Shown in pieces: positions 4,900 to 49,665 of a stretch of 64,000 nt of DNA. Within the stretch, counting starts at the first letter, position 1; every line of letters starts with the position of its first letter. The position numbers and the translations under genes are program-made. The notes under the pieces are model-generated. The model did not search any database. It was not told the DNA's origin and saw only the letters and a program-made list of their open reading frames with translations. Source of the DNA: Octopus vulgaris (lineage: Eukaryota); contig OX597818.1 in NCBI GenBank assembly GCA_951406725.2, positions 77,624,001-77,688,000 on the forward strand, read 5' to 3'.

Positions 4900-6700
4900 T
4901 ACCTTGTTGGACTTTCAATTTGTTTGTTTAGGCGATTTGAAATTTTTGTATGCCATCCCATAAGAATTTTCCTCTCCCTGGGGATTTTGTTCATGTGTAC
5001 AGTGGCCTTTCCCTCTGGGACACATTTGTAGCAGATGGCTTATATTACAGATGTGAAGTGTTGAAGTTTCATGTCGATGTCTGGTGTGGAGAGACATTTA
5101 GGTCAATTTTGTTTGAGGATCTCTTAATTTGTTTCCAGTTTGCCTTATGGAAGTTCAAGCTGGCAAGATTTTGAGAGTTTCTTGTTGGCTGCATGTCCAT
5201 GGTTTCCTTTGTTCTGTACATGGTCAGCTTTACCATTTTGTGATCCAAGAGTAGTGTCAGTGTCACTTTCACATTATGGATGAGATCCATTTTATTTGTG
5301 AAGCAGAGATCCAGTATGTTACCTGCCCTGATTGGTTGGAGTTCTATTTGTTCCATGTACAAAGTACTGATGAGGTTCAGGAGGGACTTCACCTGTCCTT
5401 GTTTGCATTGTGCCATTCCTTGGAGAGAATGGCCCTCAGGCCATCCGACATTGGGGAGATTGAAGTTTCCCGTAAGATGTACACTTATGTGTTGTTCTAA
5501 TGTAACCAGAACTTCTATTTTTGTAAGGCAGTCTTCAAACTTGCCTGCATCTTGAGGGTGATATGTAGCACATATAATTACATTGAGTTGTCTTACATGT
5601 ACAATTAATGTGGTACATACTGAATTTGAATGTGACAAAAGGGCCTGGGTGTGAAGTCTTTGCGGATGTACATAGCAACTCTACCATGCCTCCTTTCTTT
5701 TCTGTTGGTCTGTAATACAACATACTGTGGTTACTGTATTTCTGCATTTGCTATATCTGGTTTCACGTGTTTCCATAAGTGCTCTGCATAAGGCTTGATT
5801 GCATGCAACAAGGTCTCTCAGGAAAGGAATTTTTGTTCTGTTACTAAGTCCTGCGATGCTCAGTAAGAGCACTGATGTGATGTCTGTGTTGTTGCCAGTG
5901 GTGTCCACCTTGGGTCTATTTGCCATGGTGGTCTTGTGTATTGGGGATAGTCCAATCTGTGAGATTGATGTAGCCAGGTCAGTTGCTGTATAATCTTTTG
6001 TGCCATGCACAAAAAAGATTGTTGTTTAGCAGCTGCCCTTTCAGCAACATGTTGATGAGACTGATTTGTAGCACACGCTACATCTGCGTATCTCTGTTTT
6101 GTGGTAGGTGGTGCGTAGTCCTTTCCTTTTGGCAGGTGGTTTCTGCCTTGTTTCATGTTGGTGTGGCAGAGTCTTTGGTGTGCAAAACAGTAGCTTGCAC
6201 CTCCTTCTTCATGCCAGCAGACATCTTTCAAGTAGAATTTGCACATTCGTGTGTGCTGTCTCTTATCTTTTTTGTTGTATAGGCAGTCCAGTTTGCTTCT
6301 TTCTTTGGCTGTTTCATCTTTTGCTTTTGCTCCTTTTGGTTGTTCCTTTTTGGCTATTTCACCTCCACAGTTTTTCGCTTTGATGGTGGTAGAGGCGCTT
6401 GCATTTGGGTTTACTTTCCTGGCAGGTTTCTCGCTTAAACCATCTTCGTTTTCTTGAGTGTGTACCATGTGGAGGTAATATCTTTTATCTACATCTGTGC
6501 CTCCATCCTTGTCATCTTTGCTGTGTTCATTATCAAAGATGGCATCAGGAGTTCCGATGTGGGATCATATGAGAGCGTAAAAATGTGTAAACTCCTGCTT
6601 CATTCGCTCTATCTGTACTAAAGTTCCTGAGTAGTCATTGCTCTTCAGTGCAGCTGTGATAATATTGTTTGGATTATCTCCTTCAGTACCAGGCTCTCAA
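4900..6700 (-). mobile_element. Degenerate LINE (CR1/Jockey-group) 5' part: ORF1 with CCCH-type zinc finger plus AP endonuclease; no RT
   Basis: ORF 5860-6468 CKFYLKDVCWH..CFAHQRLC. Frameshifted APE motifs: ALMET, KKGG, ATYHP, GNFNLP, NILDLCFTN, LDHKMV. Boundaries approximate. Confidence 0.82.
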
Positions 6701-19469: not shown

Positions 19470-19589
19470 AGAGCTCGTAAAATATATGCTAAGTCTCCAT
19501 CAGAAAAAAATAAAGAGGAATTAAATGAAAAAGAACGGACTGTTAATACTTTGGAAACTCGCCTACGACAACTGCAAAGTGAATTTCCT
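19470..19589 (+). CDS. ARHGEF11/12: RhoGEF exon, coiled coil (RARKIYAKSPSEKNKEELNEKERTVNTLETRLRQLQSEFP), phase 0-0
   Basis: tttacag acceptor, gtaagt donor, 120 nt open; heptad-like and continues the previous exon. Confidence 0.87.
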
Positions 19590-20168
19590 GTAAGTATAAG
19601 ACTCATGCTTTTCATGTTTGCTGGTATTTGGTGGAGAAAAAAAAAACAAAAAAAAAACTCCTTGTATATTTGTAAACATATACCGGATTGTTTCAAACAA
19701 AAAGTCCTTAAACATGATTTTGTAACACGAGAAAAATGTTTATTGTTTTATTGAAATTATTTTCTTGGTGAATAGAATTTTTACTAAAATTTTCATATCT
19801 TAGGACTCTGAAAACAGAATTTCTAGGTACAGACATAGCTATACGTTTAAGAAGCTTGCTTTTCAGCTACATAGTTTCACATTCAGCCAGACTGCGCAGC
19901 ACCTTGGGCAAACATCTACTATAGCTCCAAGCTCACTATTTATGTATGTATATGTATGCTTGTATTTATCACTCCTGCCACTTAACTGGTGTCAGTTTGT
20001 TTATGTCTCTGTAACTTAGTGGCGTGACAAAAGAGACCTATAGAATAAGTGTCTGACTTAAAAATTAAGTACAGGGGTTAATATGTTCAACTAAACTCTT
20101 CAGAATGGCGCCCCATCATGGCTGCAGTCCAATGACTGAAGCAAAAGATAAAAGATATATATAAATAT

Positions 20169-20200
<32 letters not shown>

Positions 20201-23200
20201 AACTTTTTATAACATGGCCATATTCAAGAAAGATGTATAGACAAATCAAAAGATTATCTGGTCATTCTAAGGGAGTTTTTGTGTGTGTGAGTAAATTCAA
20301 AAGTGTCTGATTTTTTGACGAGTCAGAATGAAGAGTCTGTTAATGATAGATTTTTTATTATTGAATGTATGAGAAGAAAATCTTTAATTAGAAGATACTT
20401 TAACATAACAGACCATATTAGAAATGTTAAAACCATATCTTGTTTGTTTTTCTGCTGCAAATCCAATGACACGTTGGCAATAACTTGTCATTTATATGGT
20501 GGTGGGCATGAGAGTGCATGTGCAACAACATAGCTGTAAGATTATTTTTATGCACTGAAGAATGGCTGGAACAAAGGTGGTACTGGTTTGTTTATCATCA
20601 TTACTGGATGTAACTAATTTAGGGACGCTTTTTTTTTGTTCCTCTAAGACATTATCATTCTTACTGTTTCCAGCATCATCATTTCATATCCACTCTTCAT
20701 GTTGGCATGGGTTGGATGGTTCAAAAGGATCCAATGAGCCAGAGAACTACACTTTGCTTCAGTGTCTCAGTTTTGGCATATTTTCTATGGTTGGATGCTC
20801 TTACTAACACTAACCACTTTACAGAGTGTACTGGGTGATTTTTTTTTGTTTATGGCACCAGCACATGTGAGTTTGTCATGTAACTTTCAAAACTTTGAGC
20901 CCCTTTGACTGAGAGGGAGTAGAATAGAGTGGGCAGTAGCTTTATGCATGATACTGCAAGTTGAAATAAGGGAAAAGAAGTAGTCTGGTAATGTAGAAGA
21001 GATACAAGGGTACCCTGCATTACATAAGGGTGCATGAGAGTAAATAGGATGGAGCCAGAAAGAGAGAAAGTTAAAGGTGACAAGATGTTAGAGTATATCT
21101 ACAAGGTATGAGAAGGCAAATAGAAGAAAGCATAGGAGACATTTTAGAATAAAGTTCAAAACCATCATTTAATGTCTGTTCTCTATGCTGACATTTGTTG
21201 GATGGTTTGACAGGAGTTGACCAGCTGGAAAGCTGTTCAGGCTCCCTATCTGTCTTGGCATGGTTTCTATGGCTGGATGCTCTTCCTATCACCAACTACT
21301 TTACAAAGTTATCTGAATAAGCTGACAATTTGTTCTTGTTGATTCCTAAGTCACTTCTGATCAATTACATCTATGTTCAAAAATGTTCCTTTTGTCTGTA
21401 TCTTACTTTTTCAGACAATATATTTAGGACTACATTATCGATTGCCTTTTTTAAGATGGTTGTGTTTGATTTGAGAGAAATTTGGCTGCTATTTATAAGT
21501 CAATTTATTACATCAACACACTCTCACTAGATATTTTTGTCAAATGGAAACCAGTCAGGCTTTACTTTCATTAAATTAAATGGAGACATTGTGTCATAGG
21601 TATCATTGTGACTTTTGATGTTAGTGAAGTAGAATTACTTTTATTAATGATATGATAGTTACAGTGATGTATATAAAGTAAATAACTACAATGGAGCCCA
21701 TGCTTCTACAAGTTACATCTACAAGAGGAGCTAAAATTAATAATGAGCCACTTGTTACTCTCACAGTACTAGGTTCTCCCTACTTTCATTGAGCAATCTG
21801 CTTTTTTTTTTAAATATCTTTTATTTTGGTAATTAATGTAATTCTCCCCTAACATAAAACCTATCTAATGCTGACATACAAATTAAAAGTTGACCTACTA
21901 AAATGAACTGTTAGTTGCTGTGGTGTGGTTTGGTTGATGAGAGAAGAGGAAGTCATTTTTATGATCTTCTCTGTAACCTTTCACAGATTGGTTTAAATGC
22001 TGTTATTCATTTGCACAAGAAACACTGAGACTATTTCTGTCCTATTATGATTTAATGTTAGAAGAACAGAAACAATAAGAAAGTATTTTGTTGCTTTATT
22101 CTTCTTACATAGAACAGTGCTGGCTGCAAAATCACAATGTTTCATTAGTCTTTGCCACTTCTTGAAACTTTTGAATCCTGTGTACATTCAACATTATTAT
22201 GTGTGGTTCAATTAGGCAGAGGAAATCTGGCTTATTATATAGATTGGTGGGAAAATGCATAGAGATAGGCTGGTTGGGGGCGGGGACAAAGAAACAAATG
22301 TAATCCCCAGTAGGTGAGAAGCTGCTAGGTGCTAGAAGTCTTCTTAGTCATGATGTATCTGATGTTGTACTTTTGTACTTTCAGCAGCCAGAATTTTCTG
22401 ATTCTTTTACACTTGTGAGACGAGTGTGGGAATTAGATATTTTATGAGGTTATGACACACACGCACGCGTGCGCACACACACACATTTCTAAGTTTTTTT
22501 ATTTTCTCTATTTATTTTTTTCTCTTAATCCTTTCTGTTAAAGAGCATAGGCTTGAGACATAAAAGACTTTTCTATTTTTCCTGAGCATTAAACTAATAC
22601 ACCTGCTTGTTGTTCCTACACCTCTCTTTGTCTTTTGTTTTCTGTAAATTTGAACTATATATATTCTTTTATTCTTTTACTTGTTTCAGTCATTTAACTG
22701 GGTCTGTGCTGGAGCACAGCCTTGGAGGCTTTTAGTCAAACAAATCGACCCCAAGACATTTTTTTTCTTTTTAAGCTTAGTACTTATTCTCTCAGTCTGT
22801 TTTGGTGAACCACTAAGTTACGGGGACATAATTGCACCAACACCAGCTGTCAAGCGGTGATGGGAGGACAGACACAAAAACACACACAGATATATACATG
22901 GAGATATATATATATATATAGCCCACTTTGCTGAGTGGTTGGTGTTAAGGGCATCCAGCTGTAAAAATCCTGCCAAATCAGTAACAGAAGTCTAGTGCAG
23001 GCTTCTTCCTGGCCAGCTTTTGTCAAACTGTCCCACCCATGCCAGTATGGAAACAAGCTTTAAATATTGATGATGATGATACGATGGGTTTGCTTCAGTT
23101 TCTGTCTACTAAATTCACTCACAAGGCTTTGGTCATCCCATGGGTATAGTAGAAGATACTTGCCAAAGGTGTCACACAGTGGGATTGAACCTAGAACTTT

Positions 23201-23429
23201 GTGGTTGGGAAGCAAGCTTTTTATCACACAGCCACACCTGCACCTACACACACACACACACAGGGTGAGAAAGAGAAGATAGGTGCCTGGCATTACATTA
23301 AATGATAAATTTAAACATTTAAACAGAAGCATAACAAGGAACAAACAAGGCAATTCACACACAATACATGGACATGCTCTTTCCTCATCAGTTCCTTGTT
23401 GTGGTTCTGTTTAATTTTTGAAGCTTAAG

Positions 23430-23770
23430 TGCTTGTGTGGTACCACATAAAAGCTCCCATGCGATGTCACGTAAAAGTGTCCTTGTGACATCATGTAAAA
23501 GTATCAGTGTGGTGCCACATTAAAGTGCCCATTTGATGCCACATAAAAGCACCCATGTGGTGCCACATAACAGCACCTGTGTGGTGCCATGTAAAAGCTC
23601 ACAGCACACTCTGTAAAGTGGTTGGCATTAGGAAGGGTGTCCAGCTGTAGAAACCATGCCAAATCAGACTGGCGTCTGGTGCAGCCCCACCAGCTTGCCA
23701 GCTCTGGGTTCACTGTCCAACTCATGCTAGCATGGGCAATGAGCATTAAATAGTGATGATGATGATGATA
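23430..23770 (+). mobile_element. SINE family C copy with expanded internal 22-23 bp tandem (gtggtgccacrtaaaagcacccat, about 7 units)
   Basis: Tandem units run into cactctgtaaagtggttggcattaggaaggg...catgctagcatgg..(GAT)n. Other family copies at about 3320-3525, 4520-4700, 11919-12100, 20677-20870, 43840-44050, 50243-50400, 55455-55617. Confidence 0.8.
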
Positions 23771-25071
23771 TGTAGACACACTCGTATGTATATATATATG
23801 GGTACATATGAATATATCTATAAACATACATATATCATCATCATTTAGCGTCCGCTTTCCATGCTAGCATGGGTTGGACTATATAAACATATATTTGTAC
23901 ATGTGAATGTATATTTAGGCACAAGCATGGCTGTGAGGTTAAGAAGCTTACTTTGCAACTATGTAGTTTTGAGTTCAGTTTCACTTGTGTAGTACCTTGG
24001 GTAAGTGTCTTCTACTATAGCTCCAAGCCAACCAATGCCATGCAATTGAATGTGGTTAATGGAAACTGTGAAGCCCATCATATTTACATATATATTAAGA
24101 AGGAGTAAGTAGAGACAAATAGAAAAGGGTCATGAGATCTATAGCAGATAGGAACCAAAACAGGGAGTTGTTGCCTTTTATGGCAACAAAATGGGGTTTT
24201 TTTCACCCTCCTTTTTTTTTTCTGTGCTAAAGACTGATTATTATGTTTGGTATGTGTAAGACAGTGAGCTGGCAGAATCGTTATCATGTCAAACATTATT
24301 TCTTCTAGCTCCTTATGTTTTGATTTCAAATCTTTCCATGGTCGACTGTGCCGTTCATCCTTCGAGGAGGATAAAATTAAGTACCAGTGGATTACTGGGG
24401 TCGATGGTATCAACTAATGTGTTCCCCCTAATATTGGTGGCTTTGTTCCCAAAGTTAGAATTAATTATGTTAGGTATGTGAAAAGAGCATGATTGTGCTT
24501 GACTGTGTGATTCAGGCTTTGAATATGGTATATTTACAGAAGTTAGAATGGTGTTTGTAGAATGATCTGTTGGATGGATAACATTAATTTCAGTGGAAGC
24601 AAATTCTAAGTATAAGGTGATGATAATGACTTTTGGATATTGATTTCTTTGTAGTTGAATTTTCAGGGACTGAATTGAGGGTTTATTATTATTATTATTT
24701 TTTTTTTTTTTGAGTGCCGGCATACCTCAACTTAGATTATTTCAAGTTAGGTCTTTTTCCACTTTACGTCATTCTTTTAAAGAAATTAATGGAAAGAAAC
24801 TTCACTGTCGGTCTGCTTATCCACCTTTACATTGGTCTCAGTGAGCATATTTAAAAGCATAAAAGTTAAGAAAAAAAAAACATAACTATAATCAAGTGAA
24901 AAGTCTAATAAACTACATTTGAAAATCTTTAGAAACTATTCAGATATCATCTAATAAAGTTTATAAAATATTTTCCCATGTTATGTCATTTTTTGAGGTA
25001 TGTTTGTATATATTTCTTGATGACACAATTTCTACTTTATTCTATGTTTTACTCTTTTATTTTCTCTTCAG

Positions 25072-25116
25072 AGTGACTTTGTTGAACTAGGACTTCCAGA
25101 TCTTTCTTCAGGACGG
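25072..25116 (+). CDS. ARHGEF11/12: Small candidate exon (SDFVELGLPDLSSGR), phase 0-0
   Basis: Long polypyrimidine tract ending ttcag, CGG|gtgtgt donor, 45 nt, frame-preserving; no homology support I can recognise. Confidence 0.55.
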
Positions 25117-25871
25117 GTGTGTATGAACCTTGACATTCTCAATGATTGCTCTCCCTCTTTTTTCTCTCTTGCAGTTGATACTTGAGACAGTCTAGGCTAA
25201 ATTAGTATTTCTGAGAAGCACAAGCGTTTTCTTTGAATAGAATCTATAATAATATTTATTGCATTTGACCAGCTACAAATATTTAATTTATTCATTCATT
25301 GTTTATTGTTGAGAAACGGTTAACCCTTAATTTTCAAAAAAAAAAGTGCAGAATTTAGTAAAATAACTTTGTCATTATGCTGGTATCTGAAGCATAAAAT
25401 AAACATGAAATTTTAATGGATAGTTTAAATTTGGATTACTTTAAAAGCAGCAGGAAGTTTGGATCAAAAGGGTTGGTCAAATACCAAAACAACCACCCAG
25501 CCCTCCCCCTCTCTCCATGCACAAAATTTTCATATTTTTGTTTTGGAGAACATTTATTATAAATAATGTTGGATGCCAAGAGTAGATTTCTTTCTGCTGC
25601 AAACATTTGGATCAGCCAGTTCTATTCATGTTTCATGTGTTCTCTGTAGATATTGACTTACTGTCAGCTCCATTAATCTCTATTAGTTAAAAAAAAAACT
25701 GCTGAGAACAGTATGGGTACTGTCCCCTCTCACCTGATCCACTTATTTTTAAAATAACAATAAAAAAAAAAACCCTTCTATCCAGAAAATGTAGTGGACA
25801 ATTCCTTCTTTTGGAACCATTTATTTATAATGACTAATGCTACAATCAGTTAATCAGACATGAGTGTATTG

Positions 25872-27151
25872 GGATCTTTCAGTTTGGCTCACAGATTTTT
25901 TTTTAATTAATTTTTTTTTAACTAAACAGTTTAAAACTTTGTATACTGGAGTAATTTCTCATGCAGAACATGGTTTACTTCGAACATTTTTGACAAAATT
26001 TCATATTTCAGAAGTTATTTTGTGTTAAAGTTGTATTTGGGTAATTTTTACCAATCAACGATGTGTATTCAGTTGAAGGAAGCTACTGCTGTTTGTGATA
26101 GTAATTGAAGAGGAACAACTTCTGGGTCATCTCTACTAAATGTCACCACTCTGTTCTATTTTATTTTTTATTTACTACCCTTTTTTTTTTGTTCGTGTAT
26201 CGGAGAAACCAGTAAACATCGAAGAATCAACAACCAGAAAGGAAGAAATACATATATTTATTCATTTGCCCGACATTGGTATTTAAACCACTGGATTGAA
26301 TTTGGGGGAAAATTTTGGTTTTATCCACACAGAGCACATCAGTGTTTAAAAGACCTATAGAGCTACAGATCCACAGCGAGCTTTTTTGTTGTTGACATGT
26401 ATGCAATTTCAAAATGCCTTATTTTACAACTATGAGATGTATTGTTATTGTTATAATTTTATCTTACTATAATCAACAACAAACATGTTTCGGCAATATG
26501 AAAGTCTTTATTAGATTAAAAATAACATTATCGAAGCATGAAGGTAAAACAAAACAAAATATACTTCTAGGAACCAATGTATTATAGCCATAGTCTTTCA
26601 TGTTGTTCACCAACCAACCTTTCCTCTGAAAAAATCAGTGGAATCAGTTGATCCCCAGACACAAATTATTTTCCTCCTGAAACTTATAGAAATGTACACA
26701 TATTAAGTGCACCTCTCTATAAGCTGTACACTAAATTTTCCAGGTAAAAATAGTGGCTTATACACCGGACAAAACGGTAATTGTATTGGCAGTGACAAGT
26801 TTCCTCACTGGCTGGTAGTTGATAGTGTAGAGGTGGCTGTCTGCCAGTAGAGAGGGAAAGAGTAAGGAATGCCCAAGAACAGAGTGGTGATATTTTGTAG
26901 AGATGACTGGGAAGTTGTTCTTCTTCGATTACTATTGCAAACAGCGGTAGCTTTCTTTAACTGAATACATGTCATTGATTGGTTAAAATTACCCAAATAC
27001 GACGACTTTAACAAAAAATAACATGAAATTTTGTCAAAAATGTTCAAAGTAAACCATGTTCTGCATGAGAAATTACACCAGTATACAAAGTTTCAAGCTG
27101 TTTAGTTAAAAAAATTAATTAAAATATTTGTGAGCCAAACTGAACAGATCT
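25872..27151. mobile_element. Non-autonomous DNA transposon with about 135-140 bp TIRs (Mutator/foldback-like)
   Basis: gatctttcagtttggctcaca...tgcagaacatggtttactt..acatttttgacaaaatttca at left is mirrored at about 27020-27150. Degenerate flanking 8-mers gtgtattg / atgcattg. Confidence 0.8.
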
Positions 27152-27600
27152 ATGCATTGAAAGTTATAAACACATGCAGATTTACAACACGCACTTCCAT
27201 TATATATACATATATGTGTGTTGTTGTTGATGTTGCTGTTGTTTCCTGGTGTAATTAAGATGTAAAATACTGTTCTAGTTTTGTTAGTAATGCCTTCATC
27301 TCTTGAGTAAGCTCTGCCTTTCTTTCTTGCTAGTGCCTGTTCACTATTATTCTCTTAACACTACTACCAGCTTCTTTTCTGATCTCACATACATATATTA
27401 TTAATTCCTTTGGCAAACAAATCTTTAATGCCTTTTAAAAATTAGAAAAATTTCTTCTCTTGCAAATGAACTTAACATTTCCTCAGCATAGCTGTTGCAC
27501 AATTAAGAACTATTTATTTACTTTCTAAATACTCACTTTTATATATATATAAAACTATCCAGTTATACACAAAATACTATATATATATATATATATATAT

Positions 27601-27968
27601 ATAACATAAGGGACTAAAGCCATCTGAATATGGCTAGGGACAGGGCAGGGTGGTGGGGGTGTTACTGTTGCATTTAGCCCCAGGCGAACATCGACGTCAC
27701 CAGAAAGGCTCGACACCGTCACGGTGCCCTAAACCTGCAAAGGGAGGTAATTCCCCGATGAAGCGGAAACCACACCTTGAAACCATGGTCCGTGTGTGGT
27801 TTCCGCTTCATCGGGGAATTACCTCCCTTTGCAGGTTTAGGGCACCGTGACGGTGTCGAGCCTTTCTGGTGACGTCGATGTTCGCCTGGGGCTAAATGCA
27901 ACAGTAACACCCCCACCACCCTGCCCTGTCCCTAGCCATATTCAGATGGCTTTAGTCCCTTATGTTAT
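27601..27968. repeat. Perfect inverted repeat: 175-bp arms (27601-27775, 27794-27968) with 18-bp spacer
   Basis: Arms are exact reverse complements; the ORF track shows mirror ORFs on both strands. Flanked by (TA)n on both sides. Confidence 0.97.
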
Positions 27969-28010
27969 CGAGCAGTTACTGTCTATATCCCTTTTAGAGA
28001 ATTATTATTG

Positions 28011-28044
<34 letters not shown>

Positions 28045-29735
28045 TATTTATTTATTAGAGCCTCTGTCTTTTTTGTTTTGTTCAGTCTCCACATTTCCCC
28101 CATTGCTGTGCATGACAGCTTGGTTGGCTGTCACTGAACAGAACTGATGAATGCTAAATTTCCTAAATCTTGATGAGCTTTCTTGTTCCGGCTACCATTT
28201 CCCTCACCACCTTGGCTGTCACCATCTCCCTCACTGCCAACTACAACAAGCATTTAGCCAGCATGATGGGCTACTTTTCCTCTTGTTGCTGCTGCTGCTA
28301 GCTATTATTGCTGCTTACCAATCCCAGCTGTGGGCAGGATCAGTTAATGCTTCTGATTTAATGAACATTGTTTTTAAAATACACCACTTCTCCCCTTCCT
28401 CCTCTTCCTCTTTATCTCTCTCTCTCTCTCTCCCTTGCTTGAATTTAAACTTCATTGATAACATTGATTGCTACAACATATGTGAAAACCAACTTTATCT
28501 AAAATTGGTCCAACATGCTGATGTAAAACTTGGCAACTTTTTAAAATGGTGTTTTATATAATCATTATTACCAGTCAGGTACTGCTGTCAGATGATAGGA
28601 TCTTCAACTGTTATTCCCCCCTTCCTCCCTCTCTAAGTTTGTTGAGGTCTTGTGCCTGAGTAAGAAATCATTACCACATTGGACAAAATACTTTGCAGTA
28701 TTTATTATTTGTTTCGGCTCTTTACATTGAGAGTTCAAATCTCAGCATGGTCAACTTTGCCTTTCACCCCTCCAGCATCAATAAAATAAAGTACCAGTCA
28801 AATATTGAGGTTGGTCGTATCAACTACTTGCCCCCCCCTCCTCACCCTAAAAAAAAAAAAAAAATTTTTTTAAAAGGAATAAAATTCAGGCCTTGTACCA
28901 ACTTTAGAAATAATTTTTATAGCCAAATGGCAGAATTGGAAAACTGCTAAGTGGAATATTTTGCTATGTTTATTTGCATTCCCTTTATATTTTGTGCTCA
29001 AATCCCGCCAAAGTCAACTTTAGGTGTCATCCATCCAGGATCAGTAAGAACTAGAGGTAATGAGTGTCCCTCTACAGAGTTTCTTAGATATCATTGATAT
29101 TTATTACTATAGTTAGAGATTCTTGTTATGTCCATTTTAGGTTAGTAATTGACTTATTTTATACATCTTTTAGTTGAGTTCCTGTCACCTTTAGTTGCAA
29201 ATAATGAAATACTACTAGATACAGCTTAAAAAATTTCAGTTTCATATGCACATGCACACATGCGCACGCGCAATCTTTAAAACTGAATTATCTTTAGACC
29301 TAGTGTCACAGGAAATGTGTTCTTGTTTGCCATTCTTTGGAAATGTTCTTTGAGTAATGCCATTATAGATCTCATTTTCCAAAATATTTACTTCTGTGGT
29401 AAATTTTTTTAAATAGTTTGAAATATTTAAATAAATTTATTTGAAATTGATAATTTAAATTCTGCATTACTTGTATGTTTATAAAGTAGCAAAATCTTTA
29501 AGAATTTGTTTTGGATTTAAAAGAGAAGTAAAAGAAAAGCAAAAAAACGGTCTTTTGCAATCTTTGATATTACTTATATGAGTGCTTCTCCTTTATTTAC
29601 GAGTTCTATAGGAACTACTTTTTCTTCTTCATATGCTTTTAAGTACATGAATACTTGCATACATATGTAGACGCACTCATGCGTGTGTAGGTCTATATGT
29701 ATTTAAATATTGGTACATACATACATATGTATGTA

Positions 29736-29789
<54 letters not shown>

Positions 29790-30310
29790 CATATACACAC
29801 ACACACACACAACTTTTGTGAGTCATAAGCATATTATAAGTATTAAAAACAGAAAAATCCAATTTAATTCTTTGTATATATTTATGTATCTTAAATATTA
29901 TTTTTAAAAAAAATAAGTCTATTAAAATGAAAAGAAACTAAAAGGTACAAATAAGCAGAAATATATTTTAGTTTAGATCTTTATATTAAGAATAAAGTAA
30001 AATTTTTGTTTTATTACCTTCCTTCTTGAAATTGATTTGAGGAAGCACTTTGTTACTTTTTATAAATTTCTCATATTGTCTTGTATTTTCTAGTGGATTA
30101 TATATATATTATATATAAATATTGTAATTCTTTTGTTTAATTGTATTATTTGTTGATTTGACTGTAGTGAGTCTCCCTCTTATTTTTCATAGAATTTTTA
30201 TGTAATGTGTACCTATTTGACTGCTTCGATTAATGTGCTTTTTATTTTATTTTTTTTTCTTCTTCTTCCCCCTTTTTTGTGTTTGTCGTGTGTCAATTAT
30301 CTGTGAACAG

Positions 30311-30520
30311 CTACCAGGGGGGTCCAAACACATTAAGCATGGCTCCGTTCCAGCTTCCATCTACAAAACAAGGGATTTAGTTGATATTCGGGATATCAAT
30401 GTGTCTCGTTCCAAGTCTGATGCCTCAAGTAAAGCCAGCCAAGTAGTCGCTGGAGAGACCCTCGGCTCCAGCCATTCCCAGCTCCCACCTGGATATCAGC
30501 AAAGAGACAACACCAAGGAG
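30311..30520 (+). CDS. ARHGEF11/12: RhoGEF linker exon (LPGGSKHIKHGSVPASIY...QQRDNTKE), phase 0-0
   Basis: gaacag acceptor after a T-rich tract, GAG|gtatct donor, 210 nt open, GC-richer than its flanks. Confidence 0.75.
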
Positions 30521-47964: not shown

Positions 47965-48772
47965 ACTAAAATAGCTTTCCTGATATGCTACATGAATTTA
48001 GATTAATCTGTCAAATGTAATGCTTATATTCATTCACATTGTTTTGAATTAATCATGTTCCTTGAGTATTAACAAAATTTATTTCTAACTTTGTTGTCTT
48101 TTTGCATAGAGACCTGAAATTTTCTCAGTAGGTACTTAAATACCCAATGGTTTACAATTACACATTTTCAATAAAAAAACATGCATATGTATTGATATTT
48201 GACTGTATTGTATTATTTCTGAATGACATTCTGAAGATTTTTTGGGATGAAAACTGAGAAACATCTTTGTCTGATTCATCTGAAGACAAATTACTGTTTG
48301 TTTTTTTTTATTTATCTATTTTTATCAATCATCATCATCATCACTTATTTATTTATTTATTCATTCATTCATTCAACATTTTGTAAATCTTCAACTGTAA
48401 ATCTTTCCAAGTTAGCATTGCTATTTTCTGCAGCGATATCAGTAATTGCAAAAGAAGAAAAATCTTCACTTCAGATATTGAAAAACACCTTATGCTGTTG
48501 AAAATTTCACAGTATTGTGGGCAGAAATGATTTTATCTTGCATTATCGTTTATCTTCGAGATTACGATATGATTGTTTAGCTTTAAAATGACATTGTAGA
48601 GTAGGTTTGGAAGGCTGGATTTGGCCAGTTGAAACATAAAACAGGTAGAATATTTGGGTTTGACATGACTAATTTAAATGCTTAAGTGTTTAACACTGGT
48701 TGTCTATATGATATATCTGATGTAGAAAATGAAATTATAATATTAAATATCGATATCTATTTAATATTTCAG

Positions 48773-48941
48773 CCATTAAAAGTAACGATTGATGAGAATT
48801 TAGTGAAAATAATTGATGACGTTTTAAACAGTAAAACTGACAAAGAGGAAAATCTTCGCTCTTTATTCCATGATGCAAAACATGATGTTCGTAGTGCTGT
48901 AAACTTGATGCTCAATGACTTTAGGAACAAACAAAAGTTAG
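48773..48941 (+). CDS. ARHGEF11/12: RGS-like domain exon (PLKVTIDENLV...NDFRNKQKL-G), phase 0-1
   Basis: tttcag acceptor, G|gtgagt donor, 169 nt; DFRxKxxLGL motif. Confidence 0.94.
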
Positions 48942-49665
48942 GTGAGTACTTCTTCCATTTTAATGGGTCTTTTGTTGTTATATATATAATAATAAAAAAA
49001 ACACTTAACCCTTTTGTTACACATTTCTCTTGAAATACACTGCTTTTTAATTTTGAAAATAATTAAGAATTTAGTAAGATAACTTTGCCCTTATTAAGCC
49101 TGTGTTTGAAACATAAATCAACATGAAATTTTGATAGAAGTTTTAACTGGGATCACTGTAAAACAGGGTATTTGGACCATAGGAATAGAGCAATCAAAAA
49201 GATACAGTGGAAACAAACTTTAAGCCACATGGTTCTGAAGTAGGCATTTTAACCATGTGACCATACTCAGAGAGAGAAAGAGAGACAACAGGCTTCCACA
49301 CTATTTCCATTTACCAAATACCTCTTTAAAGGGACTGAACCTGAGGTTATTAAAAAAGACACTTGCCCAGGATACAGTACAGTGGGATCAGTTCCAGAAC
49401 CACATACTTGCAAAGCAAACTTCTTCACTACACAGTCATACCTATGTTTACACATATGTAGATTCAGTGTGGTTGACATTATGGCAGACCTATCCTAAAT
49501 TATTTTTTCTAATTACTTATATATCAGTAGATATTAATTTCTGAACCAATAACATATGTAAATATGACTATTAAATATCCTCAAAAAATATGTTTGCATT
49601 ATTGAACTTAGCACAATTGAATATTGACACATATATATATATATATATACATACACATACATACA

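Follow-up and report, generated by a model that had tools for sequence, protein, structure and literature searches.

A perfect intronic palindrome in Octopus vulgaris, very probably a young inverted insertion of a hammerhead-bearing repeat of the non-LTR retrozyme type

The palindrome and its host intron

The window analyzed here is a 64,000-nt stretch of the Octopus vulgaris genome (contig OX597818.1, positions 77,624,001 to 77,688,000 of the forward strand), and coordinates given without a locus label (L and a number) are positions within it. On the plus strand, contigs of three putative RNA runs from two studies are spliced from 25115 to 30310 (GT..AG with the cut at +1), and contigs of all four putative RNA runs compared are spliced from 19589 to 25072; the RNA nature of these runs is our guess, as none of them is recorded as RNA. 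The contigs delimit an upstream exon (25072..25116), an intron of 5194 nt with GT..AG borders (25117..30310) and a downstream exon that was followed as far as the contigs extend (30311..30520). A single open frame spans the three host exons, which together with the splices places the element described below within a 5194-nt intron of a plus strand gene. Further downstream, a plus strand frame (48686..49030) gave a weak RGS-like match (PF09128, E 6e-5, under the curated cut-off) and a weak C1 match (E 0.02), and the leads of an Atlas search with the RGS-like frame were all below 0.9. By these matches, and with the RGS-like exon joined to the intron of the element by no contig, the host gene would be consistent with an RGS-RhoGEF. 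Elsewhere in the window there are two minus strand frames that, by eye, we take to resemble an integrase fragment (1392-2060) and a LINE-type fragment (5069-6564).

The intron contains a palindrome with arms of 175 nt each (27601-27775 and 27794-27968) that are 100% complementary, with 18 nt between them (27776..27793) whose letters match those quoted in an initial annotation of this DNA. The block as a whole (27601-28012) has a G+C content of 51.5% and 18 CpG, compared to 27-43% G+C in the other 1-kb bins of the window and 16% in one (TA)-rich bin. The RNA fold of 27590-28020 reaches -391 kcal/mol (z -38.6), and none of 100 shuffles was equally stable. The exact arms with their spacer, the GC- and CpG-rich block in an AT-rich intron and a right copy that is longer by 44 nt (27969-28012) before (TA)n resumes had all been described initially, and all are borne out. 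What had been overlooked is that the repeat is a retrozyme, that the spacer is half a ribozyme and that the arrangement recurs at hundreds of loci.

Both arms are pieces of a 359-nt monomer, numbered here such that position 1 follows the predicted cleavage site of its hammerhead motif. In this numbering, the window copy consists of minus strand 178 to 4 followed by plus strand 341 to 222, with an overlap of 4 nt, and there are zero differences between either arm and the monomer and zero between the arms. The inverted arm (27601..27775, minus strand, monomer 178 to 4) leaves the left (TA)n run (27578..27603) with a short, tail-less end, here called A, whose exact position in the window is 175-178, blurred by the TA overlap. 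The sense arm (27772..28012, plus strand, sense to the host gene) comprises monomer 341-359 and then 1-222, and its outer end, B, reaches the right (TA)n run (28012..28055) with a 44-nt tail (27969..28012, monomer 179-222) that the other arm lacks. The two arms meet head to head at a microhomology of 4 nt (27772..27775). Since the sense arm begins at 27772 (monomer 341), the spacer belongs to it and represents the 3' half of the hammerhead (plus strand), with the end of stem II, the GAAA (27779-27782), helix III and the palindromic 4-nt loop. The predicted cleavage site falls after 27790. The 5' ribozyme half is missing and the window copy is therefore predicted not to cleave; it would be inert as an element, with half a ribozyme left. 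We consider it highly probable that the palindrome is a very young, truncated and inverted insertion of a hammerhead-bearing mobile repeat of 359 nt, that is, of a non-LTR retrozyme.

The head-to-head junction at the window locus was crossed by no contig or read in the DNA and putative RNA runs compared, and contigs of the DNA runs neither covered the left flank nor bridged the insertion site. A target duplication is not measurable at this locus because both flanks are (TA)n. The summed contig depth at 27728-27859, the ribozyme-proximal part, was far lower in DNA runs X1 and X2 than in X4 and X5; depth is not copy number, and this gives a weak hint of a difference in the youngest subfamily between populations or species.

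A repeat family with a hammerhead motif

A genome-wide search with one arm produced 1021 first-look candidates, and all 40 that were scored were full-length at 100% identity. As both arms are 100% the monomer present elsewhere, the insertion is very recent, as had been claimed, and homogenization by conversion, the alternative offered with that claim, is unnecessary. Copies are spaced 359 nt (array period 359-360 nt) in arrays that switch strand and that have up to 14.8 copies per arm, against less than one unit per arm in the window. Throughout the genome we counted 510 exact junctions of end A to (TA)n, 194 of end B and 794 exact intact ribozyme cores (44 nt), with 0 in the reversed controls, all of these counts being lower bounds because subfamilies differ. 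Older subfamilies are 83-98% identical to the monomer, and a sister family, ca. 71% identical, has 4226 candidates. The sister family (L227, L241-L260) is older, with the canonical CUGANGA core, a different palindromic loop and a similar inverted anatomy in several of the loci viewed. There is also a third hammerhead repeat family, of 360 nt and with a related tail hairpin (L191:1940-2490).

The monomer is strongly self-paired (z -5.3) and its G+C content is 46.8% (168/359), marginally above the <45% given for retrozymes in a figure legend of PMC7229834. It has no protein-coding capacity, and tblastn with proteins of Penelope-like elements (PLEs) over the retrozyme loci matched flanking fragments only. 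Having no ORF with RT and GIY-YIG, the retrozyme was rejected as an autonomous PLE in its own right. We found, as tested for in non-LTR retrozymes, a tandem monomer within the range of ca. 170-400 nt, a type I hammerhead motif in each unit and an absence of coding capacity. One putative RNA run contained a 228-nt contig of the family, a contig being unable to show circles or level.

The hammerhead of the monomer is of type I, with a stem I of 6 bp, the core C-C-G-A-N-G-A, a short stem II with U-U at its base, GAAA, a 2-bp helix III with a palindromic tetraloop, and GTC, and the whole motif sits atop a long imperfect stem (z -5.4). Covariation was assessed in 16 related, hand-chosen rows from both families (the patterns required GAAA and GTC, and degenerate copies were left out); all 224 cells were paired, and both sides had changed in 6 of the 14 pairs. 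Loop III is self-complementary in all three versions, and C3-G8 changes to U3-A8. The cells paired, the cells changed on both sides and the covariation score, all inflated because the rows are related, exceeded all 500 shuffles and the slid controls. Other measures fell short, as the pairs changed on both sides were reached in 76 of 500 shuffles and the pair types in 498. By motif and covariation, self-cleavage of the full monomers of the family is putative. An Rfam scan of the window copy gave no hammerhead match, and on the window it gave 10 matches to miRNA models, all below gathering and attributable to the hairpin, so that no microRNA precursor was recognized. Positions 17-24 of the monomer (27807-27814) are complementary to the ribozyme core and might inactivate it by alternative folding; this pairing showed no covariation in the U3-U4 subfamily.

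Fixed ends and variable junctions

After removal of 26 duplicate or partial views we retained 97 unique loci, among which 79 were inverted with ends A and B, one was inverted with end B and an eroded end, and 17 had a single arm. Neither A/A nor B/B was found. The same picture emerged from either end, in two sets that overlap. Among the 59 loci picked by end A, 49 were inverted, invariably with B as the partner, and 10 were single; among the 30 picked by end B, 27 were inverted (partner A in 26, eroded in one) and three were single. To the initial question of whether other copies are monomeric or palindromic, the answer is therefore that 80 of 97 are inverted and 17 single-armed. The possibility, also raised there, that all copies would be symmetric with fixed terminal inverted repeats does not apply, as the inverted loci pair unequal ends in 79 of 80 cases.

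The two outer ends are fixed and lie 44 nt apart (A at ca. 178, B at ca. 222), and the inner junction is variable, with insertions measuring from <250 nt to >8 kb. Inner break points are scattered round the monomer. The cleavage site was passed by 102 of 160 arms, and 13 of 160 stop at monomer 46-52, the base of the long stem. Cleaved linear monomers would be expected to leave many 5' ends at the cleavage site, but only 3 of 160 arms stop at positions 1-5 and no such accumulation was seen. Junctions could be scored in 32 of 80 loci, 25 being blunt or microhomologous and 7 with extra bases, and the mean microhomology of the 25 clean ones was 1.5 nt vs 0.66 nt for random. At L133 the arms are separated by 263 nt (L133:971-1233) that repeat, in inverted orientation, the host sequence immediately to the left of the insertion. 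This points to templated repair from nearby DNA, and since the insert derives from the flank it was rejected as partner RNA.

Both flanks are pure (TA) in 73 of the 80 inverted loci, 69 of which had been picked with a TA-containing pattern. At non-TA targets, duplications of ca. 8-12 nt bracket the whole insertion (L088, L090); further ones were found at L266, L270, L272, and L274 among 30 loci, and many non-TA loci have none. Subfamily variants agree between the arms of a locus, with 242 fixed differences in common vs 144 within-locus differences in 96,405 bases. Arm lengths are correlated (rho 0.70, n 79; 0.62 in the 69 pattern-picked loci), and the correlation is not significant in the 41 multi-copy loci (rho 0.12). 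Templates were sometimes mixed, as judged from L155, a mosaic of monomer types, and L037, which changes subfamily near the junction. L160 and L188 hold neighboring copies. Taken together, the inverted, 5'-truncated copy (80 of 97), the one-sided tail of 44 nt (A/B in 79 of 80) and the AT-rich or microsatellite target with a short duplication make up the anatomy of a PLE insertion, as had been suggested from the window locus.

How the inverted arms may have been made

The head-to-head arms were probably made in one event, in which a Penelope-like enzyme, borrowed in trans, would prime one cDNA on each nicked strand of the (TA)n target. The PLE protein, probably a dimer, would bind the retrozyme RNA near positions 175-222 and nick both target strands ca. 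8-12 nt apart. One cDNA would begin at site A (ca. 178) and the other at site B (ca. 222), and both would head to the 5' end of the RNA, frequently halting at the base of the long stem that carries the ribozyme or else running past the cleavage site up to 14 times. Joining of the free cDNA ends, bluntly or via 1-7 nt of microhomology, would then give an inverted repeat with a one-sided tail. Each strand would thus use one RNA start site, with the far cDNA ends joined together. In vitro, a PLE has been found to nick and extend both strands, with reverse transcription beginning at two positions in the RNA, one at either border of the tail (PMC11167929).

A fold-back, favored by the initial annotation, is the rival that survives best, and it is close to a proposal made in the accessible text of PMC3846280. 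In this scheme a single cDNA, or an antisense template, folds on itself and is copied back to its beginning, so that the second arm is a copy of the first, and one end is trimmed by an endonuclease cut. It fits the window locus equally well, where the A arm lies wholly inside the B arm and the spacer is loop-like, and it is allowed in 57 of the 79 inverted A/B loci (41 from B and 16 from A), about ten of them with near-symmetric junctions; it would also account for the haplotypes shared by the arms. However, in 22 of the 79 (sub-monomer examples are L107, L144, and L169) neither arm contains the other, so that these cannot be simple fold-backs and two-site priming fits better. With sequence unique to each arm, every one of them would cost an extra template switch to rescue, and fold-back alone does not account for the strict pairing of A with B in both polarities. 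Provided that the 22 are genuine single events, fold-back is excluded as the sole mechanism, and overall we regard it as unlikely.

Two separate insertions into one (TA)n run, or later recombination or conversion between copies, would be consistent with the fact that such runs draw repeated insertions, as in the neighboring copies of L160 and L188. Yet there is no TA between the arms, none of 80 loci is A/A or B/B, subfamily variants are common to both arms and a single duplication brackets the whole unit, all of which makes this explanation very improbable.

The insertion may also have a consequence for the host transcript, as the intron RNA would, by the predicted fold, carry a perfect hairpin of 175 bp as a by-product. 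The initial claim of such a dsRNA in a RhoGEF pre-mRNA stands as far as the predicted hairpin goes; its role as an ADAR/Dicer substrate is putative, and the RhoGEF label has behind it a weak RGS-like match below the cut-off. From the 49 inverted loci out of 59 picked by end A and the 510 exact ends, we estimate that ca. 420 such palindromes exist genome-wide, and the window locus is therefore not special. Its perfect stem might suggest that selection has retained the hairpin as dsRNA regulating the host gene, through editing or as a source of small RNA, but there are hundreds of similar loci, and with zero divergence from the active monomer there has been no time for selection to show; we find this slightly less credible still than two insertions. 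The genomic copies showed no ADAR footprint in the form of an A>G excess (sporadic changes were A>G 10, T>C 10, G>A 25, and C>T 24, and 4 of 17 private fixed changes were A>G). The putative RNA contigs had no row of A>G inside the element, within the limits of contigs that drop rare variants, of a likeness cut at 92% and of copies that are indistinguishable. In the same intron, one putative RNA contig has a cluster of A>G differences at 26058-26118 that editing, allelic variation or paralogous repeats might explain.

Inverted arms and TA-microsatellite targets would also be expected of a MITE or of a foldback DNA transposon bounded by long terminal inverted repeats. The loci have unequal ends, lengths from <250 nt to >8 kb, arms that are tandem arrays, a single arm in 17 of 97 cases and a unit with a covarying hammerhead, which is not the fixed length and equal ends of a MITE; this reading was rejected, in agreement with the initial annotation, and we give it hardly any credence. 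Perfect palindromes are a known class of artefact, and no contig compared crosses the window junction, but an assembly or library fold-back is just as improbable as a MITE given the unique collinear flanks in an intron bridged by RNA-like contigs and the 79 similar loci with fixed biological ends, differing junctions and ages, and target duplications.

Returning to two-site priming by a borrowed PLE enzyme, the template would have spanned the cleavage site and would therefore have been a circle or an uncleaved multimer, at about even odds. A monomeric circle is suggested by arrays that are homogeneous and have fixed variants private to their locus (one in 13 copies, another in 8), and a shared multimer by L090, where the same variant monomer is second in both arms. 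The circular version in full, with one dimeric PLE complex at two fixed sites of one circular retrozyme RNA, up to 15 rounds and products joined head to head, is a tentative proposal that we rate below even. If it were true, the PLE tail, the inverted copy and the retrozyme tandems would be explained by one mechanism, replacing the self-priming model, PLEs would mobilize an RNA without sequence homology, and by our estimate at least 400 near-perfect dsRNA hairpins would have been seeded in the genome.

Autonomous Penelope-like elements in the same genome

The genome has a young autonomous PLE, with many intact 781-aa RT+GIY-YIG frames, pLTRs, a tail of ca. 38 nt and (TA)n targets, and a short end was paired with a long one, as in the retrozyme, in all 5 inverted copies for which both ends could be seen. 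We put it forward, at less than even odds, as the best candidate for the source of the enzyme. It has no detectable sequence in common with the monomer. At L066-L084 and L191-L200 (e.g., L077:2081-6800) its layout is one of two frames, a 479-aa frame overlapping the 781-aa one, the pLTR measures ca. 500 nt, and there is a hammerhead-like motif with U3-A8. A second PLE family is represented by one copy (L085:3312-6492), with an RT-EN 46% identical to the first, a 775-nt inverted copy and (TA)n nearby.

We also looked for a partner with homology to the retrozyme. When the monomer was compared by blastn with 60 GIY-YIG loci (40 and then 20, of 148 matches among 6136 candidates), we found only separate sister retrozymes and no homologous pLTR. 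Of 103 loci in which an unusual base follows the tail, the 30 compared had no shared continuation and revealed no autonomous partner. The initial annotation had looked to a Penelope RT/GIY-YIG ORF adjoining the copies, and none was found beside the retrozyme loci examined; the PLE fragments beside L113 and L186 were rejected as partner, being separate insertions. At L279:1560-2476 an old arm of the sister family is contiguous with the degraded remains of a PLE RT, and the two may form a chimeric retrozyme/PLE insertion that could point to a partner.

Comparison with known systems

In L1 twin priming, each target strand primes a cDNA and the two products are joined through microhomology. The octopus insertions differ from this in having, by the proposed mechanism, fixed primer sites 44 nt apart, so that the arms duplicate each other, and in having no poly(A). 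A lone intronic palindrome is ordinary by itself.

The family resembles the metazoan non-LTR retrozymes, as far as described in the accessible text of PMC7229834 and of a 2026 preprint (Li et al., 2026, bioRxiv 10.64898/2026.07.22.740005), in its non-coding tandem monomer (359 nt here, 350-390 nt in mussel), type I hammerhead with short helix III and palindromic tetraloop, self-paired monomer and coexistence with PLEs; the U-U at the base of helix II is also described for axolotl HHR_Amex2. Unlike the head-to-tail tandems described in those texts, the arrays here are head to head with two fixed ends, the core of the young subfamily is C3-C4 (U4C), and a homologous autonomous pLTR was not found in 60 GIY-YIG loci. 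By the testable features in the accessible parts of PMC7229834, PMC4209133, and the 2026 preprint, the family, known here from sequence alone, would work like a non-LTR retrozyme.

The insertions are similarly like those of EN+ PLEs in the accessible text of Arkhipova (2013, PMC3846280) and Craig (2021, PMC8557442), with a head-to-head inverted copy, a tail at one end, microsatellite targets, microhomology at junctions and short target duplications (8-10 bp there). They differ from them by the absence of an ORF, a tail of 44 nt rather than 30-40 and arms of up to 10-15 monomers. The closest biochemical parallel is the Anolis Poseidon (PAc) element in vitro (Frangieh, 2024, PMC11167929), where reverse transcription has two internal starts, one on either side of the tail, both strands are nicked and extended, targets are AT-rich and a dimer is predicted. 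Its dominant substrate is the uncleaved RNA, and the main text of that work makes neither a pairing of one site per strand nor a link to inverted copies (PMC11167929).

The one-sided tail is already published for PLEs. Cephalopods are named neither in the main text of PMC7229834 (Cervera and de la Peña, 2020) nor among the 35 species classes in the accessible text of the 2026 preprint, and the accessible text of PMC6962438 counts 235 hammerhead hits in the giant squid and goes no further. Our literature search, which covered few subscription papers and no supplements, found no paper on a cephalopod retrozyme family, inverted retrozyme arrays or PLE twin priming; the supplements of PMC7229834 or PMC4209133 may list such a family. 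As far as their accessible text goes, the origin of the inverted copies and one-sided tails of PLEs has been called undefined (PMC8557442), and the movement of retrozymes by PLEs has been proposed from co-occurrence and phylogeny rather than from insertion anatomy (PMC7229834; Li et al., 2026). A family that is still identical and has hundreds of insertions turns this into countable predictions, namely strict pairing of a short with a long end, non-nested arms and multi-round arrays, and the 359-nt RNA and the young intact PLE are a pair at hand, from one genome, for work in vitro.
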